From contig JAHFGT010000003.1 in NCBI GenBank assembly GCA_023247275.1, forward strand, positions 1 to 63,024: a stretch of 63,024 nt of DNA. Direction: 5' to 3'. Source of the DNA: Candidatus Omnitrophota bacterium (GTDB taxonomy: Bacteria; Omnitrophota; Gorgyraeia; Aquiviventales; Aquiviventaceae). Positions 11,928 through 52,538 of the stretch are shown piece by piece (the stretch's first letter is position 1; each line of letters begins with the position of its first letter). The position numbers were made by a program, and so were the translations under genes. The notes under the pieces are model-generated. The model did no database searches. It saw nothing but the letters and a program-made list of their open reading frames with translations, and was not told the origin of the DNA.

Positions 11928-13121
11928 ATGGGCAAGAGTTGCGGCATGAACACGCGAACCCTGGCAGACCGTCTACAGGACATTGAAGCGTCTCCGACCC
12001 TTGCTCTAGACCAGGCTGCCAAGGCCTTGGCGAAGGCTGGCAAACCGGTCTTGAACCTCACCGCCGGCGAACCAGATGCTCCGACGCCTGAACATGTCAA
12101 GCAGGCTGGGATACAGGCGATCCAGTCCAATCGCACCACCTATACGCCAGTCGCCGGAATCGCTGAGTTGCGATCCGCCATCACCACGACAGCTCAGCAC
12201 AACTGCGGGGTCGCGTATCAGCCTTCGCAAGTACTGGTGTCCTGCGGCGCGAAGCATTCGCTCTACAATATTTTTCAGACGCTGTGCCAACCTGGCGACG
12301 AGGTCATCATCTTTGCGCCGTACTGGGTCAGCTATCCGCCATTGGTTCGCCTGGCCGGTGCCACACCGATTCTTCTCCCCACGAAAGAATCTGACGGGTT
12401 CATGCCCGACGTCGCGTCCATCCGAGCGGCACTCACCCATTCCACCAAGGCGATCATCCTCAATAGCCCAGGCAATCCAACCGGAGCCGTGATCGACGAA
12501 GCGCGGCTGGCCGAAATCGCAGCGCTCGCACAGACCCACCATCTCGTAGTTGTCACCGATGAGATTTATGACCAGCTGGTCTACCCACCGGCGCGTCATG
12601 TCTCCATCCTCCGCGTCGCCCCAGACCTGGCTGACCAAACCGTGCTGGTCGGCGGAGCGTCAAAGACCTATAGCATGACCGGCTGGCGGATCGGGTATGC
12701 CTTGGGACCCCAACCGTGGATTGAAGCCATGACCGCGCTGCAGAGCCACTCAACGTCCAACCCAACGTCCATCAGCCAGTACGCCGCGCTGGCCGCACTC
12801 ACCGGAGACCAGCAGCCTGTGGTCCGCATGCGGGATGAATTCCATCGACGACGAGATCGTCTGGTCCATGGCTTGAATCGCATTCCTGGATTGCGGTGTT
12901 TTCTGCCTGGCGGAGCCTTCTACGCCTGGTGTAACATTGCCGGACTTGGGCGATCGGCAAAGCAGGTGGCCGCGGAGTGGCTCGAGCAAACCTATGTCGC
13001 CGTCGTGCCAGGTGAAGGGTTCGGGGCAGCGGATTCGGTTCGATTCAGTTTCGCAGCGCCCATCGATGTCATCGATCAAGCCGTGCAGCGGCTGAGCGGC
13101 TGGGCCACCACACACTCGTGA
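11928..13121 (+). CDS. Class I pyridoxal-phosphate aminotransferase (aspartate aminotransferase-like)
   Basis: Contains ..LNLTAGEPD.., ..NSPGNPTG.. and ..GASKTYSMTGWRIGY.. (PLP lysine motif). Confidence 0.85.
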   Translation: MGKSCGMNTRTLADRLQDIEASPTLALDQAAKALAKAGKPVLNLTAGEPDAPTPEHVKQAGIQAIQSNRTTYTPVAGIAELRSAITTTAQHNCGVAYQPSQVLVSCGAKHSLYNIFQTLCQPGDEVIIFAPYWVSYPPLVRLAGATPILLPTKESDGFMPDVASIRAALTHSTKAIILNSPGNPTGAVIDEARLAEIAALAQTHHLVVVTDEIYDQLVYPPARHVSILRVAPDLADQTVLVGGASKTYSMTGWRIGYALGPQPWIEAMTALQSHSTSNPTSISQYAALAALTGDQQPVVRMRDEFHRRRDRLVHGLNRIPGLRCFLPGGAFYAWCNIAGLGRSAKQVAAEWLEQTYVAVVPGEGFGAADSVRFSFAAPIDVIDQAVQRLSGWATTHS

Positions 13122-13128
13122 GCAGATC

Positions 13129-14235
13129 ATGCCCCGTGTAACCTTTATTCCAGGTGATGGGATCGGACCTGAAGTGGCTTGGGCGGCTCGCCATTGTCTC
13201 GACGCCACCGGCGTCCGGTTTCACTGGGAAGAGCAGCTCGCTGGTGAGGGGGCGCTCAAGCAGTTCAACACGCCGTTGCCCCCACAAACCTTGGAGTCGG
13301 TGCGCAAGAACCGGGTGGCGATCAAGGGACCGATCACGACCCCGATCGGCACCGGGTTTCGCTCAGTGAATGTCGCCTTGCGCAGAGAGTTGAATCTCTT
13401 CGCTTGCGTCCGACCCTGTCGAACGTTTGCCGGGGTGCGCTCGCCATTCCAGAGTGTGGACCTGGTCATCGTCCGCGAAAATACCGAGGATCTGTATGCC
13501 GGGATCGAATTCGCCGCTGGTGAGCTAGCCACCACGCAGTTGATCATGCAGTTGACCACCTTGTCCAAACAACCGATCCAGCCAGATGCCGCGATCAGTA
13601 TCAAACCGATTTCCACGACGGCAAGTGAGCGAATCGTCCGGTTCGCGTTCGACTATGCGCTCGGCCACGGACGCAAGAAAGTGACAGCGGTCCATAAAGC
13701 CAATATCATGAAATTCACCGATGGCCTGTTTATGGAGACCGCGCGACGTGTCGCTAAGGCGTATGACGGGTGTGTCGCGTTTGAAGATCGGTTGGTGGAC
13801 GCGACCTGCATGCAATTGGTCCTGAAACCAAAAGAGTTTGATGTGTTGGTACTGCCGAATCTGTATGGGGATATCCTGTCTGATTTGTGCGCCGGATTGG
13901 TGGGGGGCTTAGGGGTCGCCCCAGGGGCGAACATCGGTGACGGGGTGGCCGTGTTCGAAGCGGTCCATGGCAGCGCGCCCAAATATGCTGGACTCAACAA
14001 GGTCAACCCGACGGCGATGATTCTTTCTGGTGTCATGTTGCTGCGCCACATCGGCGAAGCCGACGCGGCAGACCGGTTGGAAACCGCGGTGGAATCGATC
14101 CTCCGCGAAGGCCGCTCGGTCACGTATGATCTCAAAACAGAACGCAACGATCCGACTGCGGTGGGCACCAAGGAAATGGCTGACGCGATCATTGCACGGA
14201 TGCGATCACCTCGTCGTGATGAGACGCTATCCTGA
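13129..14235 (+). CDS. Isocitrate/isopropylmalate dehydrogenase family protein (NAD-IDH/homoisocitrate DH-like)
   Basis: Contains ..IPGDGIGPEV.., ..GFRSVNVALRRELNLFACVRP.., ..VRENTEDLYAG.. and ..NLYGDILSDL.. Confidence 0.8.
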   Translation: MPRVTFIPGDGIGPEVAWAARHCLDATGVRFHWEEQLAGEGALKQFNTPLPPQTLESVRKNRVAIKGPITTPIGTGFRSVNVALRRELNLFACVRPCRTFAGVRSPFQSVDLVIVRENTEDLYAGIEFAAGELATTQLIMQLTTLSKQPIQPDAAISIKPISTTASERIVRFAFDYALGHGRKKVTAVHKANIMKFTDGLFMETARRVAKAYDGCVAFEDRLVDATCMQLVLKPKEFDVLVLPNLYGDILSDLCAGLVGGLGVAPGANIGDGVAVFEAVHGSAPKYAGLNKVNPTAMILSGVMLLRHIGEADAADRLETAVESILREGRSVTYDLKTERNDPTAVGTKEMADAIIARMRSPRRDETLS

Positions 14236-32289: not shown

Positions 32290-32907
32290 ATGACGCGTGT
32301 CTGGTCCCTGGGGATCACGGCCTGTGCATTGATCACTGGGTGCGCGACCGTTCCGGTCGGCCCAGTGGCTCTTGACTCACCCCCTGTGGTCCGGCCGCTG
32401 CCTCAACTGGCCGGATCTTACCATGTGGTTCAACGCGGTGAAACACTTTGGCGAATCGCACACTCCTATGGCCTTGAGCCGCAGCAATTGGCAGCTGCCA
32501 ACCGCCTGCGAAGCACCGTACCCGTCAGATCCGGGCAACGATTGTTCGTTCCGCTGCCGCCTGAGACATTGGCATTTCTTTGGCCGGTCCGTGGGACCGT
32601 TCGGAGCGCCGGATCAACCCATGGGGTCAAAATCAGCGCGTCGCCAGGTAGCTTGGTGCGCGCCTCCCGAAGTGGTCAAGTTGCTGTCGCAGCGCAGCAG
32701 CTCGCCGGCTGGGGCAGGACCGTGGTGTTGGACCATCTTGACGGACATTTGACCGTGTATGCTGGCCTGGATCAAATCTTGGTCAGCCCTGGCGTTACCT
32801 TGCGCCAGGGCACCCCACTCGGAACCATCGGCCTGCAGGCGATGCATTTCGAAATCCGGTATGGGGCCACACCGAAGAACACCCTGGCGTATTTGCCATC
32901 GGAATGA
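32290..32907 (+). CDS. NlpD-like lipoprotein: LysM plus degenerate M23 (LytM) domain
   Basis: Lipobox LITGC. LysM motif YHVVQRGETLWRIAHSYG. The M23 region lacks the HxxxD Asp (THGVKI) and the first His of HxH (AMHFE). Confidence 0.85.
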   Translation: MTRVWSLGITACALITGCATVPVGPVALDSPPVVRPLPQLAGSYHVVQRGETLWRIAHSYGLEPQQLAAANRLRSTVPVRSGQRLFVPLPPETLAFLWPVRGTVRSAGSTHGVKISASPGSLVRASRSGQVAVAAQQLAGWGRTVVLDHLDGHLTVYAGLDQILVSPGVTLRQGTPLGTIGLQAMHFEIRYGATPKNTLAYLPSE

Positions 32908-33041
32908 TCCCACCACCTGCGGCGGCTGCCAACGGCAGCCCTGCAACTGAAGGAATTGCAAGGAAGGTTGTCATGAGCACTCATCAACGAAGTCGTTGCA
33001 GTGCCACGCCGCCGGCGTGGCAGCCGCAGGTGGTGGGATGA
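32904..33041 (+). repeat. ATGA-bounded inverted-repeat element, copy B (17 + 5 bp terminal helix)
   Basis: Positions 32907-32923 pair perfectly with 33023-33039; after a 3-nt bulge, 32927-32931 pair with 33018-33022. The left ATGA contains the upstream stop and the right ATGA contains the downstream start. The whole element is one open 45-codon frame. Confidence 0.7.
32973..33041 (+). CDS. 22-aa upstream ORF (MSTHQRSRCSATPPAWQPQVVG), translationally coupled to the ATPase gene
   Basis: SD AGGAAGG lies 5 nt before ATG 32973. Its stop TGA at 33039-33041 overlaps ATG 33038. It is in frame with ATG 32904. Confidence 0.3.
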   Translation: MSTHQRSRCSATPPAWQPQVVG

Positions 33042-34687
33042 GCTCACCCCCAAATCTCCGCCCAGAACTTGCCCGTCATCTGTCGCAACGACTCGAGGCC
33101 TTTAGCGATGGGTTTCGCCACAACCTGGCTTTAATCGGTCCACCAGGTAGCGGCAAGAGTTTTCAACTCCAGCAACTGGTTGCGGCTGCCCCGAACACGC
33201 TCACGCTCATCTCATGTTCGCTGTATCGCGAGTCATGCCGCAGCTTCCTCACGCGACTGCTCGGCGCGACCCTGCAGGCCGGCTGCATCGCCGCCGGTCA
33301 GCGCCAGGCTTTCGGAGTACCCGATAGAAACGATTCGACCACAGATCAATGGCTCGTACCGGCGCAGCCGCTCGAACAGATGGTACGCACAGCCGAGCCG
33401 GTGTTGCCCAACACTGCAGCAGCCATCCGCACCATCGAACCGCTCGTCAATCGCCGATCCTATGCTGAAGCCTTTACCCGCACACTCGACACCATTCCAG
33501 TCCTGGCCGAAGAGCTGCGCCAGCCCACGGTGCTCATCCTGGATGAATTCCTCTATCTCGAGGAGCTCGGGCTTGGGCATGCGTTTCATGAACTCGGAAA
33601 GCGGGTCATGACCTGGCCGTCGACGCTGTTCATCCTCTCCAGCAGTGCAACGTATCGCGCCCGAGCCATTCTCAGAGAACGGTTGCAACTGCTCTTCGGA
33701 CAATTTGAACTGCTCACGTTGGAATCGCTTGAACCGAGCACCGCAAGTGAATGGGTGCACCAAGCATTGGTCGGAATCCGCCGCGCGGATATGGTCAGCC
33801 CGTTCTTGCTGCGTTGGCTTGGCGCCTACCCCTGGTACCTCACGTTGTTCCTTAAGCGATTCAAGGAGCTGGCCGCCTTGGGCCATCGGTTTGATGAGCC
33901 TGAGCACCTATTTTTGCAAACAGCCTGGGACCTCTTGGGCAGCCCCGAAGGTCCGCTCCATCAATGGTGTGTCTCGCGTATTGAGTCATTAGTCCATGCC
34001 CGCAGCGGCGCACGAGCGCTGGATACGCTCATCCATGTGGCTGGCGGCGCTCGAACCGCGACAGAAATCGGATCCCGTATTGGCCGGGCCGGCCTGTCGA
34101 CCGCGCTGCAAGCCTTGGTTGAGCATGACCTTGTTCAACGCAACGGAAGCTGCTGGTTGGTGACCGATCCTGTTGTGCGCTGCTGGTTATCGTCTGTCTT
34201 GCTAGCCCGGCGCACCAATGCGCAGAGCGATGAGACCTTGGTCCGCCACCGATTCGAGCAGTATCTGCGGTCGCTCTGGGTGCACTGGGAACAGCTGCAT
34301 CAGCTGTCGTTTTCAGAGCAGGTGGTCCATCTATTCGAGCGATTTGACGATGAAACGGTCTGGCTGGACTCTAAGACCGGTCGACTGCCAAAGTTTGACT
34401 CGATCCGCACTGAGTGGACCGCCAATTCGGCCGCGTACATCATCGCGGATGGCGGGGGACGACGATGGTGCGCCACCGTCCAGGAGCGTGCGGTGGCTGA
34501 ATCGGATATCAGCAGTTTTGAGCGGTTCTGCCGCTCCCAGCAGCCGAAACCCTCTCGGAAGGTCGTCATCACGCGAACCGGATTGGATCAGAACGCTCGG
34601 TTGTTAGCCAAAACGTCCAACATGTGGGTCTGGCAGCCAAGTGATCTAAGCCTGCTGGCCGGACTCTACGGCGCCCAGCACCGGTGA
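33038..34687 (+). CDS. AAA-type ATPase (archaeal-ATPase/DUF234-like architecture)
   Basis: Walker A GPPGSGKS and Walker B VLILDEF. A wHTH-like middle region is followed by a C-terminal ..YIIADGGGRRWCATVQER.. nuclease-like region. Start is ATG 33038 (the ORF extends to TTG 32996). Confidence 0.78.
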   Translation: MSSPPNLRPELARHLSQRLEAFSDGFRHNLALIGPPGSGKSFQLQQLVAAAPNTLTLISCSLYRESCRSFLTRLLGATLQAGCIAAGQRQAFGVPDRNDSTTDQWLVPAQPLEQMVRTAEPVLPNTAAAIRTIEPLVNRRSYAEAFTRTLDTIPVLAEELRQPTVLILDEFLYLEELGLGHAFHELGKRVMTWPSTLFILSSSATYRARAILRERLQLLFGQFELLTLESLEPSTASEWVHQALVGIRRADMVSPFLLRWLGAYPWYLTLFLKRFKELAALGHRFDEPEHLFLQTAWDLLGSPEGPLHQWCVSRIESLVHARSGARALDTLIHVAGGARTATEIGSRIGRAGLSTALQALVEHDLVQRNGSCWLVTDPVVRCWLSSVLLARRTNAQSDETLVRHRFEQYLRSLWVHWEQLHQLSFSEQVVHLFERFDDETVWLDSKTGRLPKFDSIRTEWTANSAAYIIADGGGRRWCATVQERAVAESDISSFERFCRSQQPKPSRKVVITRTGLDQNARLLAKTSNMWVWQPSDLSLLAGLYGAQHR

Positions 34688-42897: not shown

Positions 42898-44208
42898 ATG
42901 CAGACAACAGTAAATATCGGCCTCATCGGACTTGGCACCGTTGGCACCGGGGTGGCCAGGGCGCTGATCGAGAAGGCGCGGCTCCTCGAACAACGCATCG
43001 GCACGCGGATCGCGTTGCGCCGCGTGTGCGATCGCGATATTCGTCCGTCGCGTGGCTTTCGGCTGCCGGCCGGCCTTGCGACCACCGACGCGTCGAAGAT
43101 CCTGCGCGATCCGGATATCCAGATCGTGGTCGAGCTGATCGGCTGGCTTGAGCCGGCCAAGAGCTATATCTTGGACGCGCTGCGACATGGCAAGCATGTC
43201 GTCACCGCCAACAAGGCGCTCTTGGCAACCGCCGGGCGCGACCTGTTCATCGCCGCTGGACGGGCGCGCGCTGATTTGTATTTCGAAGCCTCGGTTGGTG
43301 GCGGAATCCCGATTATCAAAGCACTCCGCGAAGGCCTCATTGCCAACGACCTGGACACCATCCTCGGAATCGTCAATGGCACCTCGAACTACATCCTGAC
43401 GCAGATGCGGGATCAGCACCTCAGTTTCCACGAAGCGCTGCTGGAAGCCAAGCATCATGGCTATGCCGAGCGCAACCCATCGTTGGATATTGACGGGCAT
43501 GATGCCGCGCACAAGCTGGCGATTCTCACATTGCTTGGGTTCGGCTTGCCGGTGCAGCCGTCGGCCATCCATGTCGAAGGAATCAGCACGATCTCTCAGG
43601 CCGACATTGAGTACGCGGACGAGCTTGGGTACTGCATCAAACCCTTGGCGATCGCCAAACAAGTGGACCATGAATTAGAGGTGCGCGTCCATCCAGCGTT
43701 GCTGGCGAAGACGCACCTGCTGGCGAATGTCAACGGGGTGTACAACGCCATCTATGTGCACGGGGATATGGTTGGCTCAGCGTTGTTCTACGGGCGCGGC
43801 GCAGGGCAAAATCCAGCCGCCAGCTCGGTGCTGTCGGACATCGCCGACGTGGCTCGGAATATCATCAGCGGCGTCAACCATCGGATCCCGCTGACGAATC
43901 CATTGAGCCATGGCGTGCGCCGGGTGCGCCGGATGGGTCAGGTCGAGACACGCTACTACATGCGATTTCTCATGCGGGACAAGCCTGGCGTGTTGGCGAA
44001 GATTGCCGGCGTGTTGGGACGCCATTATATTTCCATCGCGAGCGTCCACCAAAAAGAACGTCGCGCGGCCCGGATCGTGCCGGTGGTCATGATGACACAC
44101 GAGGCCAAAGAGTCAGACATCCGCACCGCCCTGCAACTCATCGATCGGATGGGGTTCGTCAAACACCCGACGGTGGCGTTGCGTACCGAAGCGCCGAAAG
44201 TAAAGTAA
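42898..44208 (+). CDS. hom: Homoserine dehydrogenase (with C-terminal ACT domain)
   Basis: Contains ..IGLIGLGTVGTGV.., ..VVTANKALLA.. and ..FEASVGGGIPII.. Confidence 0.93.
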   Translation: MQTTVNIGLIGLGTVGTGVARALIEKARLLEQRIGTRIALRRVCDRDIRPSRGFRLPAGLATTDASKILRDPDIQIVVELIGWLEPAKSYILDALRHGKHVVTANKALLATAGRDLFIAAGRARADLYFEASVGGGIPIIKALREGLIANDLDTILGIVNGTSNYILTQMRDQHLSFHEALLEAKHHGYAERNPSLDIDGHDAAHKLAILTLLGFGLPVQPSAIHVEGISTISQADIEYADELGYCIKPLAIAKQVDHELEVRVHPALLAKTHLLANVNGVYNAIYVHGDMVGSALFYGRGAGQNPAASSVLSDIADVARNIISGVNHRIPLTNPLSHGVRRVRRMGQVETRYYMRFLMRDKPGVLAKIAGVLGRHYISIASVHQKERRAARIVPVVMMTHEAKESDIRTALQLIDRMGFVKHPTVALRTEAPKVK

Positions 44209-44216
44209 GCCTCATG

Positions 44217-44306
44217 CTCAGTCAACAGTCGACAGTCTTCAGCCCACAGCGAACACTGTACGCACTCTGTCGACTGTCGACTGTTAACTGTGAACCCTCG
44301 ACTGCA
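44217..44306. repeat. Paired heptanucleotide tandem arrays (NNCAGTC)x5-6 and (GACTGTN)x4-6 forming a 19-bp inverted repeat
   Basis: First array: CTCAGTC AACAGTC GACAGTC TTCAGCC CACAGCG. Second array: CTCTGTC GACTGTC GACTGTT AACTGTG. Positions 44219-44237 pair with 44272-44290 with one mismatch. Confidence 0.7.
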
Positions 44307-44308
44307 CG

Positions 44309-45418
44309 ATGACACTTCGCCGTCGTTCTCGGCGAGTCTCGCAGTCCAACGCATGGCCTGGAGTCATTGAGGCCTACCGCAGCTATCTGCCGGTTTCTGC
44401 AACGACACCGATCATCTCGTTGTTGGAAGGCAACACGCCGCTAATCTACAGCCGCCAGTTGAGCCAGGCGATTGGCCCGCGAGCTCAGGTGTACCTCAAG
44501 TATGAGGGGATGAACCCAACCGGGTCATTCAAAGATCGTGGCATGACGCTGGCGATTTCAAAAGCGGTCGAAGCCAAGTCGGTCGCAGTGTTGTGCGCGT
44601 CGACCGGGAACACGTCAGCCGCCGCCAGCGCGTACGCCGCGCGCGCCGGGCTGCGATCGATCGTGCTCATTCCGAGCGGCAACATTGCGCTCGGTAAGCT
44701 GTCGCAAGCGCTGATCCATGGCGCAAAGGTGGCACCGGTCGAGGCCAACTTCGATGCCTGCTTGGCCCTCGCCAAATCGCTGGTGAACAACCATCCGATC
44801 ACGCTGGTCAACTCGATCAACCCGTATCGGATCGAAGGTCAGAAGACCTGCGCGTTTGAAATTTGTGACGCGCTGGGGCAGGCCCCGGATTACCACTTCA
44901 CGCCGGTGGGCAACGCCGGCAATATCACCGCGCAGTGGAAAGGATACAAGGAATACCGGCAGCACCGAAAGATCGACCGGCTGCCAGTCATGCTGGGGTT
45001 TCAAGCCGAGGGCGCCGCCCCCATCGTCCATGGCGCGGTTGTGAAGAACCCGAAGACGATCGCGACCGCGATCCGAATCGGCAACCCAGCCAGTTGGCAG
45101 GGCGCGTTGACCGCGACTCAAGAATCAGAGGGGGCCATCCAGGCGGTCTCCGACGCTCAAATCCTCGAGGCCTATCGGCTGTTGGCCAACCATGATGGCG
45201 TGTTCGCCGAACCAGCGTCGGCCGCATCGGTGGCCGGCTTGCTGCAATTGGCCCGAACCGGCTATTTTACCAGCCGCAAGAAACGGCAGACCACCGTTGT
45301 CTGTATTCTGACCGGCCATGGCCTCAAGGACCCTGGGTGTGCCATTGACAGCATTACGATGCCGAAGCCGCTGCCGCCGTCATTGTCCGCCGTGAGCAAA
45401 GCGGTTGGACTCGGTTAG
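44309..45418 (+). CDS. thrC: Threonine synthase
   Basis: Contains ..LLEGNTPLI.. and ..KYEGMNPTGSFKDRGMT.. (PLP lysine). Confidence 0.93.
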   Translation: MTLRRRSRRVSQSNAWPGVIEAYRSYLPVSATTPIISLLEGNTPLIYSRQLSQAIGPRAQVYLKYEGMNPTGSFKDRGMTLAISKAVEAKSVAVLCASTGNTSAAASAYAARAGLRSIVLIPSGNIALGKLSQALIHGAKVAPVEANFDACLALAKSLVNNHPITLVNSINPYRIEGQKTCAFEICDALGQAPDYHFTPVGNAGNITAQWKGYKEYRQHRKIDRLPVMLGFQAEGAAPIVHGAVVKNPKTIATAIRIGNPASWQGALTATQESEGAIQAVSDAQILEAYRLLANHDGVFAEPASAASVAGLLQLARTGYFTSRKKRQTTVVCILTGHGLKDPGCAIDSITMPKPLPPSLSAVSKAVGLG

Positions 45419-45467: not shown

Positions 45468-45496
45468 TTGGCGTCGACTCGGTTCCCGAGTATAAT
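45468..45496 (+). promoter_or_regulatory. Putative sigma70-type promoter
   Basis: TTGGCG-N17-TATAAT. The predicted transcript start falls just 5' of the left arm of element copy C. Confidence 0.45.
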
Positions 45497-45505
45497 GAGT
45501 GATTC

Positions 45506-45668
45506 ATGATCCCACCACCTGTCGCTTGAGCCGGCTCAGTGGTCAGCACGCCAGGCTGGCTCAAGATCGCCAACAAGACAACGAAGGTTGCACGGGATGA
45601 CGAATACAAAGAGTGCTCGCCGGGGCGATCAGCCCGCCATCGGCGGGCTGCAACAGGTGGTGGGATGA
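45506..45668 (+). repeat. ATGA-bounded inverted-repeat element, copy C (14-bp terminal helix)
   Basis: Positions 45509-45522 pair perfectly with 45653-45666. Both end motifs are identical to copy B: ATGATCCCACCACCTG and CAGGTGGTGGGATGA. Inner hairpins: 45525-45532 with 45558-45565, and 45630-45638 with 45642-45650. Confidence 0.65.
45597..45668 (+). CDS. 23-aa upstream ORF ([23 protein letters not shown]), coupled to the apgM-like gene
   Basis: SD GAAGG lies 9 nt before ATG 45597. Its stop TGA at 45666-45668 overlaps ATG 45665. Confidence 0.3.
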   Translation: MTNTKSARRGDQPAIGGLQQVVG

Positions 45669-46828
45669 AATATCTCCTCCTGCGCTGTGAAGATTATGCC
45701 CGCCCGGGTGGTCAGCTCGTCAGCCTGCTCGAAGGCGCCAAGACCGAGCATCTGCACCAGTTGGCTCAGGCCGGCGCGGCCGGGCAGTTAAAGCCTCAGG
45801 CGCCAGACCAGGGAATCAATCGGTTCGCTCTGCATCGCGGGTTACTCGGACTGCGGCCAGATGATCCAGAGGCTGCGGCCAGCCGATGCTATGCCACCAG
45901 CGCCGGGCTGTCGTTGGCTGATGGCCAGACCGCCTGGTGCTGTGATTTGGTGACGCAACAAGACGGCCAGATTGTGGATCCATTGGCCGGCCAGATCCCA
46001 ACGAAGGAGAGCGCTGAGCTCCTTGACACGCTCAACCGAACACTGGGCCCAGACATCGGACGCTGGACACTGGGTTGGAACTCGCACCATGTGTTGGTCA
46101 CTCAGCCAAACGTCTTACAGGTCGACGAGCTGCAACGGCTGCCAGCCCCAGAGCAGCTCACCAGCCAGCCTTGGCGTCGCGCACTCCCGAAGTCTGCGGC
46201 TGGCCGAGCGTTGCAGTCGCTGTTGGAGCAGGCTGGGGAGCAGCTCGACAACCACCCGATCAACCGGGTGCGGACCGACCTGGGAGAAAACCCAGCCAAC
46301 TTTCTCTGGCTGTGGGGTGGGGCGGCCTCAATTCCGCAGCGCAGCTTTACAGAACGAACCGGGCTGTCCGGGGCGTTGATCTCGTCCAACTTTCCCTTGC
46401 GAGGATTCGCTGAATCACTCAGCCTTCATTGGTACACCGGCCCGTCGACGCTGCAGGATGCGCCGCTGGTCAAGCTGACCCAGCAACTCGGTCGACTCGC
46501 TCAGCAACATGATCTGGTCTACGCGCATCTTCGCGTGGACAGCCGTGACCCGGTCGAACGGCTGTGCATGATGGAGCGCTTGGACCAGCTGGTCTTCAAA
46601 CCGCTCACCGAGCTGTTGCCCACGTTAGGATCGTGGCGGTTGCTCATCGTCATCGATGATCAGCCGACACAGAGTGTGCCGTTCGTGGGCATTGGCACTG
46701 GGCTGCCGCAGCACCCGGTCGTCAAATTAACCGCGGAGAATCTTGCCGGGAGCCCGCTCGTCTTCCAAGACGGTCGGGGACTGTTCGACTGGCTGACCGA
46801 CTCGAGCAGCCACCAGGCGTCCTCATGA
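45665..46828 (+). CDS. apgM-family (cofactor-independent phosphoglycerate mutase-like) protein with degenerate metal/nucleophile motifs
   Basis: MKYLLL.., ..[22 protein letters not shown].. and ..[13 protein letters not shown].. fit the family. The expected GDGMAD, PGSD, PDExGH and DHxTP positions instead read [19 protein letters not shown] and DDQPT. Confidence 0.72.
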
Positions 46829-48093
46829 GAAGAAGGCGTTTGGTCGTCCAAAAATATGGCGGCAGCTCGGTGGCCAATCCAGAGCGTATCACCCGTGTGG
46901 CGCAGCGCGTGGTCGCCGCAAAACGCACCGGGGCTGATGTCGTCGTGGTCGTCTCAGCGCTTGGGGATACCACCGACGAGCTGCTGCAATTGGCGGCGCA
47001 GATCAGCCAAGACCCTCCTGAGCGTGAGTTGGACATGTTGATGGCCACCGGCGAGCAAGTGTCGGTCGCGCTCTTGGCGATGGCGATCCATGAGCTGGAT
47101 GAAGATGCGGTCTCTTTCACCGGCGCACAGATCGGGATTTTGACCGATGGGACGCATACCAAAGCGCGCATTGTGGCCATTCCGGCCCAACGCGTCGTGA
47201 AAGAGCTGGCGCAAAACCGGATCGTCATCGTCGCCGGATTCCAAGGCATCAACCTGAACCAAGACATCACCACGTTGGGACGCGGCGGGTCAGACCTGAC
47301 CGCGGTCGCGTTGGCGGTCGCACTCCGGGCCGATGTGTGCGAGATTTTCACCGACGTCGAGGGCGTCTACACCGCCGACCCCCGGATGGTGCCGGATGCC
47401 CGCAAATTGACAGCCATCAGCTACGATGAGATGCTCGAGATGGCTTCGTTGGGCGCTCAAGTCATGCAGGCCCGATCTATCTTCGTCGCCAAACGGTTCA
47501 ACATCCCGATCCATGTCCGGTCCAGTTTTTCACAACGGGAGGGGACGATGATCACCAAATCCGCGAAGGCGATGGAAGACATCGTCGTCAGCGGGGTCAC
47601 CTTGCAGCGGGATGAAGCCAAGGTCACTATCCGCGATGTGCCGGACAAGCCTGGCATGGCCGCAGAGATCTTCCGAGAGCTGGCGGGCAAGGGCATTAAC
47701 GTGGACATGATCGTGCAGAACGTCAGCCGCGAGGGCTCCACCGACCTCTCCTTCACCGTCGTGAAGAGCGACTTGCCATCCACGTTGCGGGTGGCGCGCA
47801 TGGTGTCGCACCGGATCGGCGCCGGCGAGGTGACGACCGATGAAGGCGTGGCAAAATTGTCGATCGTTGGGATTGGCATGCGCAGTCATTCAGGGATCGC
47901 TGCCAAAATGTTTGAATCCATGGCCCGCGAGCGAATCAACATCGAGATGATCTCCACCTCAGAAATTAAGATCTCCTGCGTGATCCGCAAGCTGCATGCG
48001 GAGCGCGCGGTCCGCGCGGTCCACCGAGCATTCGGTTTGTCTCGCGAACGCGTTGCGACTCATCGCCGACCCGCGGCGATGCTGGGCGCATAA
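46825..48093 (+). CDS. lysC: Aspartate kinase (with two ACT domains)
   Basis: ATGA overlap with the upstream gene. Contains ..[16 protein letters not shown].. and ..[15 protein letters not shown].. Confidence 0.93.
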
Positions 48094-48148
48094 CCGGCGC
48101 GGTCTGTCCCGTACGCGTCGACTGACCGCCATCACACCAGGACAACCA

Positions 48149-49765
48149 ATGTCTGTGATCGAACTGTATGACACCACGCTCCGCGATGGAGCGCAGACCG
48201 AAGGGATTTCCTACTCGGTGCAGGATAAACTGCGAATCACCGAGAAGCTGGACGCCCTTGGGCTGCACACCATCGAAGGGGGCTGGCCGCTCAACCCGAA
48301 AGATGCCCAGTTTTTCCGTCAAGCTCGTCAGTTACGCCTGACCGCTCGGCTGGCCGCATTTGGCAGCACGCGACGGGCTGCCACCCCTGCGGCAGACCCG
48401 AATCTGAAATCGCTGCTTGCGGCCGAGACCAAGATCGTGACGATTTTCGGCAAGAGCTGGGACCTGCATGTGCGCGATGTGCTCAATATCAGCCTCGATA
48501 ACAACCTTCGCGTCATTGAGGACTCTGTCGCGTTTCTGAAGAAGCGTGGACGCACGGTGGTCTATGATGCTGAGCATTTCTTTGACGGGTACAAGGACAA
48601 CGCCGCGTACGCGCTCAAGACGCTGCAGGCCGCAGTGGCCGGAGGCGCTCAAACACTCGTGCTGTGCGACACCAACGGCGGCAGCCTGCCGACCGAGATC
48701 ACCGCCATCATCCACACGGCGAAGCGCGCCGTCTGGGTGCCGCTGGGAATCCACACGCACAATGACAGCGAACTGGCAGTCGCGAATGCGATCGCCGCGG
48801 TGCAGGCCGGGTGCCGACAGGTGCAGGGGACAATCAACGGGTATGGCGAACGGTGCGGTAATGCCAACCTCGTTTCCGTCATCGCGATCTTGAAAGTCAA
48901 ACTCGGGATCAACTGCCTGCCGGATGCGAAGCTGAAGGAACTCACTGAGGTCTCGCGCTACGTTGCTGAATTGAGCAACATGGCCCAACACGCGAACCAG
49001 CCATTCGTCGGCGCGGCCGCGTTTGCGCACAAGGGCGGGGTGCATGTCAACGCGGTGCTAAAAAATCCGCGGACGTACGAGCATCTTGAGCCGGCCATGG
49101 TCGGCAATGAGCGGAAGATTCTCGTGTCCGAACTGTCTGGTCGCTCATCGCTGGTGTTCAAAGCCAAGGACCTGGCGCTGGATCTGTCGAAGAACACCCC
49201 GCAGGCGAAACGGCTGCTGAAGCTGTTGCAGAATTTGGAGCATCGCGGCTACCACTTTGAAGCGGCTGAGGGGTCGCTCGAGCTGCTGCTGAAGCGGCAG
49301 TTGAAACAGTTCGCGCCGTTTTTCACGCTGGAAGGGTTTCGGATCATCATGGAAAAGCGGGACCACCGGCTGGTCTCCGAAGCCACGGTCAAGCTGCATG
49401 TCAACGGCGTGCGCGAGCAGACCGTGGCTGAAGGGGATGGGCCGGTCAACGCGCTGGACAACGCCATCCGTAAAGCGCTCAACCGGTTTTACCCGGCGCT
49501 GGCGCAGATGCACCTGACCGACTTCAAGGTGCGGGTGCTCGATGAGAAGGCCGGCACCGCGGCGAAAGTGCGCGTATTGATCCAGTCGCAAGATCCGCAT
49601 GAGTCCTGGGGCACTGTCGGCGTGTCCGAGAATATCATCGAAGCCAGTTGGCAGGCGCTCGTGGATTCGATCGAATACAAACTGCTGAAGGATCAGAAGA
49701 CAGAGGGCAGAGGACAGAAGTCAGTAAAAATACGAAAGACGAAGGCGTTGCCTCGGTCCTCATGA
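48149..49765 (+). CDS. cimA: (R)-citramalate synthase (LeuA/CimA family); 3' tail is encoded by a repeat array
   Basis: ATG 48149 gives MSVIELYDTTLRDGAQTEG.. Contains ..HTHNDSELAVAN.. and has the C-terminal regulatory domain. Confidence 0.85.
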   Translation: MSVIELYDTTLRDGAQTEGISYSVQDKLRITEKLDALGLHTIEGGWPLNPKDAQFFRQARQLRLTARLAAFGSTRRAATPAADPNLKSLLAAETKIVTIFGKSWDLHVRDVLNISLDNNLRVIEDSVAFLKKRGRTVVYDAEHFFDGYKDNAAYALKTLQAAVAGGAQTLVLCDTNGGSLPTEITAIIHTAKRAVWVPLGIHTHNDSELAVANAIAAVQAGCRQVQGTINGYGERCGNANLVSVIAILKVKLGINCLPDAKLKELTEVSRYVAELSNMAQHANQPFVGAAAFAHKGGVHVNAVLKNPRTYEHLEPAMVGNERKILVSELSGRSSLVFKAKDLALDLSKNTPQAKRLLKLLQNLEHRGYHFEAAEGSLELLLKRQLKQFAPFFTLEGFRIIMEKRDHRLVSEATVKLHVNGVREQTVAEGDGPVNALDNAIRKALNRFYPALAQMHLTDFKVRVLDEKAGTAAKVRVLIQSQDPHESWGTVGVSENIIEASWQALVDSIEYKLLKDQKTEGRGQKSVKIRKTKALPRSS

Positions 49766-49802
49766 TCCCTTCTGTCCTCTGACTTCTGTCCTCTGACCTC
49801 TG
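49691..49802. repeat. Paired heptanucleotide arrays (NNNCAGA)x5 and (NNYTCTG)x5 flanking the cimA stop
   Basis: First array: GATCAGA AGACAGA GGGCAGA GGACAGA AGTCAGT. Second array: CCTTCTG TCCTCTG ACTTCTG TCCTCTG ACCTCTG. There is a 17-nt perfect complement, CAGAGGACAGAAGTCAG. Confidence 0.7.
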
Positions 49803-49808
49803 AACGCC

Positions 49809-52538
49809 ATGGCTGACCTCCCACCGCAATATAATCCGCAAGATGTCGAACAGCCCCGCTACGAATGGTGGGAGGCGCAGCGATTCTTTCATGCTGAGCC
49901 GGATCCAAATCGCCAGTCCTACACCATCGTCATCCCGCCACCCAACGTCACCGGCATCCTGCACATGGGGCATGCGCTCAACAACACGATCCAGGACATC
50001 CTGATTCGGTGGAAGCGCATGCAAGGCCTGAATGCGCTCTGGATCCCTGGCACCGATCATGCCGGGATCGCAACCCAGAACGTCGTCGAGCGCGCGTTGG
50101 CCAAAGAAGGCAAGCGGCGGGATGACCTGGGGCGTGACGCGTTTATCCAGCGGGTCTGGCAATGGAAAGAGCAGTCTGGCAACACCATCATCCAACAACT
50201 GCGACGGCTGGGCGCGTCATGCGACTGGACCCGAACCCGGTTCACGATGGATCAAGGGTTGTCGGACGCCGTGGCTGAGGTGTTCGTGCGGCTCTACGAC
50301 AAGGGGTTGATCTATCGCGGCCAGTACATCATCAACTGGTGCCCGCGGTGCCAGACCGCGCTCGCCGATGAAGAGGCGCCGCGTCAAGAGATGCAAGGCA
50401 AGCTGTACCACATCAAGTATCCGCTCGAAGGCAAACCATCTGCATTTCTTGAAGTCGCGACCACACGACCAGAGACGATGCTGGGCGATACCGCGATCGC
50501 GGTGCATCCGGACGATGAGCGGTATCGCGCGCTGATCGGCCAGCAGGCGATCTTACCGCTGGTGAACCGGCGGCTGCCGATCATCGCCGATGAGGCGGTG
50601 GACCGCGAATTTGGCACCGGCGCGGTCAAGGTCACACCGGCGCATGACCCGGTCGACTTTCAGCTCGGGCGCAAGCACCAGCTCGAGTTCATCAACGTCA
50701 TGACGGATGATGCGCACATGACCAATGTGCCGCCAGCCTATGACGGCCTTGACCGGTATGCCTGCCGCAGCAAGCTCATTGTCGACTTAGAACAGGCCGG
50801 CGTCTTAGGAGCGATTGATGAGCATGTGCATAATGTCGGCCACTGCTATCGATGCAACACGCCGATCGAGCCTCGCCTGAGCCCGCAGTGGTTCGTGAAG
50901 ATGAAACCTCTCGCCGAGCCGGCCATCCAAGCGGTGAAAGACGGCACCATCACCTTTTGGCCAGACCGATGGACCAAGGTCTATCTCAACTGGATGGACA
51001 ATATCCAGGACTGGTGCATCAGCCGACAGATCTGGTGGGGCCACCGGCTGCCGGTCTACTATTGCAAGACCTGCGCACGACAGGCAGCGGTGCACGGGGC
51101 ACGGGGCACGGGGCACGGTGAGACATCAACCACCGTGCACCATACACCGTCAACCGTACACAAGGGAATCATTGTATCCAAAACCAGGCCGACGCGGTGT
51201 CCGACCTGCGGCAGCACTGAACTTGTACAGGATGAGGATGTATTGGACACCTGGTTCTCGTCCTGGCTGTGGCCGTTCTCGACGCTGGGCTGGCCGCAAC
51301 AGACCCCAGAGTTGGCGTATTTCTATCCGACCTCGACGCTGGTGACCGCGCAAGAGATCATCTTCTTCTGGGTCGCGCGCATGATCATGGCCGGCTACTT
51401 CTGCATGGGCCAGCCGCCGTTTCGGCAGGTGTACATCCACGGCACGGTGCGCGACATCACCGGTAAGAAGATGTCGAAGTCGCTGGGCAACATCATCGAC
51501 CCGCTGGACATCATCAAGCAGTACGGGACCGACGCCTTGCGCTATACGCTGGTGACCGCGACCGCAATCGGGCAGGATGTGTTCCTCTCTGAGGAGCGGT
51601 TCGCCGCCGGCCGCAACTTCGCGAATAAACTGTGGAACGCGACCCGGTTTGTGCTCGCACAGCCATCGCCTGCCGCTCAAGGCAACGACCAACTCGCACA
51701 GCCATCGCTCAGCGTCGCAGATCGCTGGATTGTGTCACGACTCCAACGAACCATCGGACGGGTCACCGAATCGCTGGACACGTTCTTGTTCAACGATGCG
51801 GCCAGCGCCTTGTACGATTTTCTGTGGCACGATTACTGCGATTGGTACGTTGAGGTGGCCAAACGGGCTGCTCCTGAGCAGCGAGCAACAACCCAGACGG
51901 TCCTGGTCACCGTGCTCGAACAAGCGCTGCGGCTGCTACATCCGTTGATGCCATTTGTCACCGAAGAGCTGTGGCAGCACCTCAGACAACAGGGGCACCC
52001 CGTGTCCATTATGACGGCAACATGGCCGACGATCGACCCCCGGCGGACAGACCCTGAGGCTGAGACGTTGTTTGAGCAGTTCAAGGCGGTGATCACCGCG
52101 GTCCGCACCACGCGCGCTGAGTTGAATCTGCCTGTGACCAGTCGGCCAGGCTTGTCGGTGCGAACATCAGACGCCGGAGCACGGGCGTTTTTTGAATCGC
52201 ATCAGGCGTTGCTCGAGTCGCTGGCACAGGTTGAACGCGTTGCGATCAGCGCGACAGGGGACCGGCCCAAACACGCCGCGGTGTCAATTGTTGACGGGAT
52301 CGAGGTGATGATTCCGCTGGCTGGTTTGATCGATCCGCAAAAAGAGTCGCACCGGCTGCAGCAGCGTGTCGCCGAGCTGCAGCAGGAGCTGGGTCGGGTG
52401 GACTCGCGCCTGGCCAACGAGCAGTTCACCGGCAAGGCGCCGCCAGAGGTTGTTGGCCAGGCGCGGGCCAGGCGGCAGCAGCTGGTGGACACCATCAAGA
52501 AGTTCTCAGACCACCTTGCCGTTATCCGATCGATGTGA
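49809..52538 (+). CDS. valS: Valine--tRNA ligase (with repeat-encoded insertion between the zinc-knuckle Cys pairs)
   Basis: Contains ..PPPNVTGILHMGHALN.. and ..KMSKSLGN.. C-terminal coiled coil. Confidence 0.95.
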   Translation: MADLPPQYNPQDVEQPRYEWWEAQRFFHAEPDPNRQSYTIVIPPPNVTGILHMGHALNNTIQDILIRWKRMQGLNALWIPGTDHAGIATQNVVERALAKEGKRRDDLGRDAFIQRVWQWKEQSGNTIIQQLRRLGASCDWTRTRFTMDQGLSDAVAEVFVRLYDKGLIYRGQYIINWCPRCQTALADEEAPRQEMQGKLYHIKYPLEGKPSAFLEVATTRPETMLGDTAIAVHPDDERYRALIGQQAILPLVNRRLPIIADEAVDREFGTGAVKVTPAHDPVDFQLGRKHQLEFINVMTDDAHMTNVPPAYDGLDRYACRSKLIVDLEQAGVLGAIDEHVHNVGHCYRCNTPIEPRLSPQWFVKMKPLAEPAIQAVKDGTITFWPDRWTKVYLNWMDNIQDWCISRQIWWGHRLPVYYCKTCARQAAVHGARGTGHGETSTTVHHTPSTVHKGIIVSKTRPTRCPTCGSTELVQDEDVLDTWFSSWLWPFSTLGWPQQTPELAYFYPTSTLVTAQEIIFFWVARMIMAGYFCMGQPPFRQVYIHGTVRDITGKKMSKSLGNIIDPLDIIKQYGTDALRYTLVTATAIGQDVFLSEERFAAGRNFANKLWNATRFVLAQPSPAAQGNDQLAQPSLSVADRWIVSRLQRTIGRVTESLDTFLFNDAASALYDFLWHDYCDWYVEVAKRAAPEQRATTQTVLVTVLEQALRLLHPLMPFVTEELWQHLRQQGHPVSIMTATWPTIDPRRTDPEAETLFEQFKAVITAVRTTRAELNLPVTSRPGLSVRTSDAGARAFFESHQALLESLAQVERVAISATGDRPKHAAVSIVDGIEVMIPLAGLIDPQKESHRLQQRVAELQQELGRVDSRLANEQFTGKAPPEVVGQARARRQQLVDTIKKFSDHLAVIRSM
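51092..51158. repeat. Heptanucleotide arrays inside valS: (GCACGGG)x3+1, then (CACCGTN)x4
   Basis: Units at 51092-51119 and 51131-51158. GCACGGTG at 51113-51120 pairs with CACCGTGC at 51131-51138. Confidence 0.7.

Follow-up and report, generated by a model that had tools for sequence, protein, structure and literature searches.

The stretch of DNA analysed here (the window) comprises positions 1 to 63,024 of contig JAHFGT010000003.1 from a Candidatus Omnitrophota bacterium (GenBank assembly GCA_023247275.1), and our subject is a 138-bp element within it, copy B, at positions 32904–33041 of the forward strand, the strand on which all window features below are read. By Pfam, the element lies between a LysM and Peptidase_M23 (NlpD-like) gene upstream (32290–32907) and an AAA_16/AAA_22 ATPase gene downstream (33038–34687), whose Omnitrophota orthologues are 55–65% identical. 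Counted with both flanking ATGA tetranucleotides, copy B begins with ATGATCCCACCACCTGCGGC and ends with GCCGCAGGTGGTGGGATGA. The left ATGA (32904–32907) holds the TGA stop of the M23 gene and the ATG of a frame that runs through the element, while the right ATGA (33038–33041) holds the ATPase start codon and the TGA that ends this frame. The relay frame, as we call it, is uninterrupted over its 45 codons from left ATG to right TGA (MIPPP...QVVG*), and inside it an internal open reading frame (ORF) of 22 codons (32973–33041) is preceded by GGAAGG and stops across the ATPase ATG.

The two ends of copy B are complementary, with positions 32907–32923 pairing perfectly to 33023–33039 over 17 bp and a second pairing joining 32927–32931 to 33018–33022. 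The left arm of this terminal inverted repeat (TIR; 32907–32923) consists of a core, ATCCCACCACCTG, followed by four variable and covarying bases (CGGC); it encodes IPPPA and resembles an anti-Shine-Dalgarno sequence. The right arm (33023–33039) consists of GCCG followed by CAGGTGGTGGGAT, and supplies both a Shine-Dalgarno (SD)-like AGGTGG and the A of the regenerated ATG. Next to the arms are two GC hairpins with 3-nt loops, GGCTGCC-AAC-GGCAGCC on the left (32924–32940), which recurs in most long copies, and GCCACGCC-GCC-GGCGTGGC on the right (33003–33021), and the whole element has a predicted folding energy of −82.2 kcal/mol (z = −7.6). The initial annotation of this DNA, made from the sequence by a model, had described the ends, the 17-bp and 5-bp pairings, the ATGA overlaps, the 45-codon frame and the 22-aa ORF of copy B, and each of these statements holds on re-reading.

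That annotation had also placed two further copies with the same ends in the window, which are confirmed as copies A and C. Copy A (1375–1518) is 144 bp long, carries an open 47-codon frame and sits between the ribosomal protein genes rpsQ (S17) and rplN (L14), as identified by Pfam; its arms are degenerate, with 13 of 17 positions pairing when G·U is counted. Copy C (45506–45668) is 163 bp long, which leaves a remainder of 1 on division by 3, and its frame closes after MIPPPVA*. It adjoins a PhosphMutase-family (PGM-like) gene (45665–46828) at the start codon, and contains an internal 23-codon ORF with its own SD and ATG (GAAGGTTG...ATG) that ends at the right TGA. Its predicted fold is similarly stable (−88.9 kcal/mol, z = −7.3), and a GC hairpin with a 3-nt loop again stands beside the right arm, so that the hairpins reported for both B and C are present.

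Several observations indicate that the paired arms are not a product of chance. A 15-mer from the arm, searched with up to 3 mismatches, matched 10 times in the window against 2.4 expected, a count reached by none of 100 shuffles; the folds have the z-scores given above; and dozens of contigs belonging to other metagenome-assembled genomes (MAGs), mostly labelled Omnitrophota, carry these paired ends too. Two candidate pairs in the window were rejected. A supposed fourth copy at 49930–50126 lies inside valS, and its 'left arm' is a chance match to the conserved ValRS motif IPPPNVTG, while an end pair at 12131–13162, considered as a possible larger autonomous element, lies in an aminotransferase gene.

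The starts of the genes that follow the elements are correctly placed. The ATPase N-terminus MSSPPNLRPE lines up with the starts of its orthologues, which puts the genuine start downstream of copy B, and the other start alignments, involving MKYVILRCED and MIQIRTHLEVADN, likewise led us to judge those starts genuine. We observed that mechanically called ORFs of two downstream genes, 32996–34687 (TTG start) and 45539–46828 (GTG start), reach upstream into the elements, and for this reason gene callers may add false N-terminal extensions.

Empty and filled junctions in related genomes

To compare the copy B locus with its relatives we used four Omnitrophota loci reached through homologues of the ATPase (L-numbers here and below are our own labels). 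Gene order is shared at all four, with thiE-like, M23, ATPase and HD-domain genes, and a HIT-domain gene preceding the HD gene in three of the four. In three loci (L360, L362 and L363) the stop of the M23 gene and the start of the ATPase gene form a bare 4-nt ATGA overlap, for example ...cggaATGAtgatcc..., and in the fourth the two genes are separated by a 6-nt spacer. The same junction in the window reads ...cggaATGA[130 bp]ATGAgctc....

The other two window copies give the same picture. At the S17–L14 junction, where the window has copy A, the Omnitrophota MAG L088 carries a bare GGGATGATCC in the context gcgggATGAtccaaa, and the same junction in L193 is filled by an element from a different interior subfamily. 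For copy C, three orthologous loci with thrC, PGM-like and aspartate-kinase genes (L364, L365 and L366) read TATAAT-N10-12-ATGAA(A/G) with no element, whereas the window reads TATAAT-N9-ATGA[element]ATGAAATAT. Thus, for all three window copies, an element-free site has one ATGA and a filled site has an ATGA on both sides. Since the orthologous junctions are bare, the window copies are insertions. The orthologues of the copy C locus also show that this copy sits on the start codon of a short-leader gene.

These comparisons bear on how the codons around copy B should be read. The left ATG was the start codon that the ATPase gene used before insertion, and the TGA of the left ATGA is one copy of an inferred 3-bp target duplication. 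In the right ATGA, the A comes from the element and the TGA is the second copy of that duplication.

The box in front of copy C (TATAAT, 45491–45496) lies 9 nt 5′ of the left ATG, is kept in the empty-site orthologues and marks the original short-leader start. A TATAAT box 6–12 nt before the ATG was seen at element-bearing genes (L098 at about 385–412, L131 and window 45491–45509) as well as at the empty sites of L364–L366, a recurrence that suggests leaderless or very short-leader mRNAs may be common in these Omnitrophota.

A dispersed family with symmetric ends

We searched for further copies by scanning species-representative genomes and metagenomes for the arm and keeping paired inverted matches 50–190 nt apart. 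This gave 79 distinct sense-oriented copies, from 20 genome loci and about 45 metagenome contigs. Among genomes, paired matches occur almost only in MAGs labelled Omnitrophota or Omnitrophica, the rest being single chance matches; a few carrier MAGs are automatically labelled Planctomycetia, Elusimicrobia or 'uncultured bacterium', and those homologues of flanking proteins that have a source name are annotated Candidatus Omnitrophica. The host genomes span about 46% to 67% GC. The 120 viral contigs listed hold no paired ends, only single unpaired matches consistent with chance, and a viral origin is therefore not supported. A plasmid search found no similar sequence. An Rfam search of the window at gathering thresholds returned two tRNAs and no family for the element, and an Rfam search by E-value returned only a spurious miRNA-precursor match (23 bits against a threshold of 197).

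Copies are 66–186 bp long with variable interiors, their sole ORFs are pass-through frames of 21–61 codons, and none carries a transposase gene. An all-against-all comparison of interiors gave 13 subfamilies whose members are 72–90% identical (up to 100% over shorter matches) and have dissimilar flanks; two further interior clusters are one element read on both strands and fall outside the 13. The interior of copy B belongs to one of these subfamilies, being 79–81% identical to an inverted element with unrelated flanks in metagenome contig L173. The initial statement that interiors are not similar is thus correct among A, B and C and fails beyond the window. For at least 8 subfamily pairs, one of them B and L173, related interiors run opposite ways with respect to the ATGA...ATGA frame. 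In L136, two copies about 90% identical stand 2.9 kb apart, and head-to-tail arrays with one common ATGA occur in L011, L095, L174 and L230.

Dimers of a particular kind recur in this material. The first unit ends in CAGGTGGTGCGGATGATCCC, where an extra C fuses the two relay frames (…QVVRMIPPP…), and this was seen at 8 loci with different second units (L137 2966–3274, L148 3444–3734, L136, L143, L146, L187, L193 and L207). Copies flanked by TCA...TGA (L148 5449–5580 and L226) at first seemed to speak against direct duplication, but they are tandem dimers whose shared ATGA junction has mutated (GGGGTCATCCCC and GGGACGACCCC), fusing the two frames.

The ends of the family are far more uniform than its interiors. 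For the 72 copies preceded by NTG, which also served for the frame statistics below, 94.9% of cells in the 17-bp repeat are paired. Nearly every copy has a terminal helix of 17 bp (median 17), with pairing breaking off sharply at position 18; this length takes in the A of the flanking TGA, and 16 bp lie inside the element. Helix positions 1–13 (ATCCCACCACCTG) are almost invariant. Positions 14–17 vary and remain complementary, with all four Watson–Crick pair types and 21–41 double changes per position, giving a covariation score of 0.256 against 0.083 in shuffles, none of 500 of which reached 0.256. Longer copies fold as a multi-branch junction, in which each arm of the closing helix has a GC-rich hairpin, frequently with a 3-nt loop, next to it. 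The stems of these subterminal hairpins covary, and the hairpin architecture is general in most long copies.

Every copy has NTGA at its left border and ATGA at its right. The left flank of the 72 copies is ATG in 68, GTG in 3 and TTG in 1, and since it mirrors start-codon usage, it points to duplication of TGA rather than to a fixed 4-bp ATGA target. Because the junctions are identical in either orientation, the element proper must be symmetric and flanked by the duplicated TGA, with the A of the right ATG as its last base. Its ends are accordingly TCCCACCACCTGnnnn ... nnnnCAGGTGGTGGGA (TCCCACC...GGTGGGA). We take a 3-bp duplication of TNA type to be suggestive of IS5/Harbinger-like enzymes. 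The ends ATCCCACCACCTG and CAGGTGGTGGGAT do not match the RYYYAAC/GTTRRRY ends of integron attC sites and the neighbours are housekeeping genes, such as rpsQ and rplN, so that identity with attC is ruled out on the ends and on the lack of a cassette context.

Candidates for a larger, autonomous relative were also discarded. The region L089 1358–2717 is a normal GGDEF gene that finishes with ...NQVVG* at an ATGA overlap, and the end pairs in L180 and L203, 1023 nt apart, lie within ordinary long ORFs and have no transposase-like layout. At L089 2700–2720, the end of the GGDEF gene (CAGGTGGTGGGATGA) overlaps the next ATG and imitates the right arm perfectly but has no left-arm partner, for which reason a single-arm match is not evidence for an element.

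Proposed translation through the element and competing explanations

Each of the 72 copies was analyzed for its length and for the frame beginning at the left start. Length is divisible by 3 in 55 copies (binomial p = 9e-14), and 53 of these 55 are open from the left start to the right TGA, compared with a mean of 21.8 and a maximum of 32 of 55 in 500 shuffles of the interiors; the other five frames of the same copies are open in 0–36 of 55. Fourteen copies leave a remainder of 1, nine of which are open in frame into the downstream ATG and predict an N-terminal extension of the form MIPPP...GGGM, though no such fused form was found among 240 homologues of the two downstream proteins. A remainder of 2 was seen in only 3 copies. 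Differences within subfamilies fall evenly on codon positions 1, 2 and 3 (55/50/51) with non-synonymous changes far outnumbering synonymous ones, and an indel between two related copies (162 and 165 nt) leaves the length divisible by 3. Frames open above chance combined with an even spread of changes over codon positions indicate that the open frame is selected and the peptide is not. On these statistics, selection requires no more than a way for a ribosome that enters at the left start to get to the right stop or start.

Among the 72 copies, an ORF of 80 codons or more starts at the right ATG in 53, many of the others being array members or cut off at contig ends, and one of this length finishes at the left TGA in 35. 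Copies that lack a gene upstream often have another element, or a TATAAT-like box at a distance of 6–10 nt, in front of the left ATG (L098, L131 and window copy C). Crude gene calls in the window give 159 intergenic TGA/TCA triplets and 25 NTGA first-start codons, so that about 14% of copies would be expected at start codons if every non-coding site were tolerated, versus at least 74% seen. The neighbouring genes themselves are functionally unrelated, and include rplN, the ATPase gene, the phosphoglycerate-mutase-like gene and many others.

From these results, we consider it probable that copy B is one copy of a non-autonomous DNA element resembling a MITE, or miniature inverted-repeat transposable element, found in MAGs mostly labelled Omnitrophota. 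The element inserts at ATGA gene starts and junctions and brings its own ribosome-binding site (RBS) and start codon, and its neighbours are probably still translated. It is a variant of a MITE or of a coupled repeat like the MIRUs (mycobacterial interspersed repetitive units) compared below. Of the possibilities offered in the initial annotation, it was the MITE-like one, with CCCACCACCTG as TIRs and an ATGA/TGA duplication that preserves coupling, that gained strong support, from the empty and filled sites, the dispersed subfamilies in both orientations, the arrays and the frame statistics.

As the sites and junctions show, the element inserts at TGA (NTG|A) and duplicates it, and its symmetric ends regenerate ATGA in either orientation. 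Surviving copies are concentrated where the NTG was a start codon, either at an operon stop/start ATGA overlap (A and B) or at the start of a first gene (C). In the mechanism of expression that we propose, insertion would preserve the upstream stop, and the old start codon would now open an ORF through the element, ending at a TGA that overlaps the regenerated ATG behind the SD-like AGGTGG of the right arm. Ribosomes that have completed the upstream gene, or that begin at the old start codon, would (re)initiate at the left AUG, unwind the closing helix as they translate, terminate at the UGA overlapping the new AUG and reinitiate there with the aid of the SD-like arm. The outcome would be two successive −4 termination–reinitiation couplings, except in the class with a remainder of 1, where ribosomes could read in frame into the gene as an N-terminal extension. 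In the mRNA, the arms are predicted to form a 17-bp helix that buries the SD and AUG, and that a ribosome translating the relay ORF, or one that terminates at the left UGA, would open. In copy C, MIPPPVA* would still be long enough to open the left arm, and the internal ORF with its SD and ATG ends at the right TGA. We regard such coupling by helix melting as a plausible consequence of insertion; the downstream gene is likely to depend to some degree on the relay or on upstream translation, since the helix buries both the AUG and the SD-like AGGTGG.

Several points weigh against this account. The 13-nt core is kept perfectly where interiors have fully diverged and across hosts of 46–67% GC, which is more than is usual for decaying MITEs, and such conservation could mean that the arms have a function at each locus, whether as SD supply, as a lock on the RBS or as the recognition site of a conserved protein. 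Target choice, selection or benefit, or a deletion bias could each lie behind the enrichment at start codons; under the last, imprecise deletion would be lethal only at a start codon and copies there would be trapped. About a quarter of the copies, including window copy C, break the relay frame yet precede intact genes, which argues that the relay is not obligatory. Finally, the transposition mechanism is one that we infer purely from structure, and the loci fetched, about 1.5 Mb in all, yielded neither an autonomous element nor a transposase with such ends.

The strongest competitor accepts a mobile origin and supposes that the element has since been domesticated as a translational lock, with helix and relay ORF now maintained by the host and the downstream gene strictly dependent on upstream translation; stalling at the N-terminal Pro-Pro-Pro codons, which map exactly to the left arm, might tune the lock. 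We judge this reading rather unlikely. The near invariance of the 13-nt core alongside freely changing interiors would fit it, as would the strong enrichment at gene starts, the agreement of the right arm with the extended SD AGGAGGTG at 7 of 8 positions and the resemblance of the left arm to the 16S 3′ tail (that of the textbook 16S sequence, not the host's). The predicted stable helix also closes the fold in 54 of 72 copies, and coupling by RNA unfolding is an established mechanism (PMC12548453).

The strand on which structure is conserved speaks to this question, since selection on an mRNA should tolerate G·U pairs in the sense strand but not A·C, which is G·U in the antisense. Within the 17-bp helix there are 15 G·U and 24 A·C combinations, the whole-element folds contain 142 G·U pairs in the sense versus 159 in the antisense strand, and folding energy is no different between sense and antisense (p = 0.14). 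No selection on sense-strand RNA was detected by this asymmetry, and for that reason the structure appears to be a property of a DNA palindrome, with nothing to mark the helix as an evolved RNA switch. The same holds for the subterminal hairpins, in which the initial annotation had suspected structural covariation: the covariation is real and general, but it is equal on both strands and so looks like a feature of the DNA rather than of the mRNA. Sequestration of the SD is then probably a by-product of the transposon ends. The lock is further weakened by orthologous genes that lack the element, by copies that keep the helix and break the PPP (PSP, SPP, PLP and LPP), and by recognition by a transposase, which would explain arm conservation equally well. 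A variant in which the transposon ends evolved into a pair resembling SD and anti-SD plus a start base, and were perhaps co-opted as a 'ribosome relay with lock', seems to us unlikely. If it were true, such ends would allow the element to persist specifically at start codons and stop–start overlaps throughout a bacterial lineage, the 17-bp helix would shut the downstream RBS and be opened only by an upstream ribosome pausing on Pro-Pro-Pro, and perhaps at least 100 genes per genome, extrapolating from 3 copies in 63 kb, would be tied to upstream translation and possibly be sensitive to elongation factor P.

Next, the same dispersed element could have been moved by a system that recognizes single-strand hairpins, of the IS200/IS605-TnpA or repetitive extragenic palindromic (REP)/RAYT-like type. 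Insertion would then occur 3′ of ATGA without duplication, the right end carrying its own ATGA. The structured ends, the subterminal hairpins with covarying stems, the arrays sharing a single ATGA and the identical tetranucleotide at left flank and right end all agree with such a system. We nevertheless find it improbable, since it fixes the orientation of the interior, and related interiors here occur in both orientations in at least 8 subfamily pairs, B and L173 among them, which argues against a mechanism with asymmetric ends. Moreover, the ends are a true symmetric inverted repeat, unlike those of IS200/IS605, and the left flank can also be GTGA or TTGA.

A non-mobile cis-regulatory RNA of the host, evolved in place as an RBS-sequestering leader or as a long-range coupling helix, would account for a helix that occludes SD and AUG and ties the upstream stop to the downstream start, and for the covariation at helix positions 14–17. 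It is contradicted by the empty orthologous sites, by the tandem arrays, by the same interior appearing at unrelated loci and also inverted, by variable interiors with no conserved core beyond the closing helix, and by the absence of both an Rfam family match and G·U strand asymmetry. The regulated leader proposed in the initial annotation is equally at odds with the functionally unrelated neighbour genes and with interiors that show no conserved ligand- or protein-binding part. The evidence from empty sites and inverted copies largely refutes this explanation, which we hold to be very improbable. Lastly, a family of functional small proteins (MIPPP...QVVG, 21–61 aa), suggested by frames open far above chance and by conserved N- and C-terminal residues, is scarcely credible, as those residues are the translated inverted repeat, different subfamilies have unrelated interiors, changes within a subfamily are distributed evenly among codon positions (55/50/51) and mostly non-synonymous, and inverted copies are open on whichever strand is sense.

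Apart from the element itself, we observed two other palindromic structures in the window. A long hairpin of 7-nt-periodic units at 49693–49802 (CAGAAGA CAGAGGG CAGAGGA CAGAAGT CAG / CTGACTT CTGTCCT CTGACCT CTG) straddles the stop of a leuA-like gene (47996–49765), the stop lying within 'ctcATGATCCCttctg', and its 18-mer CTGACTTCTGTCCTCTGA is also present in Omnitrophota contig L366 (1469–1486), upstream of the PGM-like gene's TATAAT box. A similar heptad-periodic hairpin at 44219–44290 (CAGTCAA CAGTCGA CAGTCTT CAG ... CTGTCGA CTGTCGA CTGTTAA CTG) lies in the spacer between a homoserine dehydrogenase gene (42898–44208) and a thrC-like gene (44309–45418). The hairpin at 49693–49802 may represent a second family of palindromic repeats.

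Comparison with known systems

The initial annotation knew of no described motif of this form. This stands for the sequence, with neither a paper nor an Rfam family found, and our search for literature on the arm sequences or on Omnitrophota repeats returned nothing relevant; it does not stand for function, where the MIRU is a known analogue. A 2024 review of prokaryotic MITEs never mentions 'start codon', 'translational coupling', 'ribosome binding' or 'MIRU' (PMC10969869).

Among small mobile repeats, the Correia/NEMIS elements of Neisseria and the enterobacterial repetitive intergenic consensus (ERIC) sequences resemble the Omnitrophota element in being non-autonomous, with TIRs, a short target duplication and a helix in the mRNA, and in Neisseria the Correia/NEMIS helix is an RNase III substrate (PMC10969869). 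Unlike the Omnitrophota element, Correia elements duplicate TA and sit in untranslated regions, and they neither keep a frame nor rebuild a start codon. The Rickettsia palindromic elements (RPEs) share with it a palindromic structure, mobility and survival in translated sequence by keeping frame (PMC10969869, PMC3184786). However, RPEs sit inside genes and join the protein, whereas the Omnitrophota element forms a separate, coupled intergenic ORF, and only the minority with a remainder of 1 would extend a protein.

The translational side of the arrangement has parallels in couplings by RNA unfolding and reinitiation, such as rpmI–rplT and MS2 coat–lysis, and in 'bicistronic design' leaders, where a short ORF ends at the target start and the target SD is buried in structure opened by the translating ribosome (PMC12548453). 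These classical couplings are single-locus arrangements, evolved or engineered, while that of the Omnitrophota would be delivered ready-made by a mobile repeat. The relay ORFs could serve as a natural library for testing unfolding and scanning models of translational coupling, and the frame statistics provide direct, population-level evidence for selection on termination–reinitiation coupling in an uncultivated phylum. Annotation of Omnitrophota genomes is affected as well, through spurious small ORFs and upstream-extended ones of the kind called in the window, and the tandem arrays might be used to mark strains.

The nearest known analogue is the MIRU, which a 2025 review (PMC12548453, citing Supply 1997) describes as apparently mobile, inserting at start codons and carrying an internal ORF coupled with −4 spacing; in the accounts given by PMC12548453 and PMC3184786, such insertion has minimal effect on expression. 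Like the Omnitrophota element, MIRUs are short (40–100 bp), dispersed as well as tandem, and located in operon junctions, with a small ORF that begins across the stop of the gene before it and ends across the start of the gene after it (−4/−4). The relation we propose is one of analogy only, since the phylum differs and the ends are of TIR type. MIRUs are mainly direct tandem units with imperfect inverted repeats only, whereas the Omnitrophota element has a perfect 17-bp TIR that pairs both ATGA ends and can insert either way round. It also provides an SD-like sequence together with the A of the regenerated ATG, and its interiors vary greatly. If our interpretation is correct, it would be the second independent case, after MIRUs, of a mobile element that is translationally 'transparent' in operons, and a much cleaner one, because its symmetric ends rebuild stop, SD and start in either orientation.

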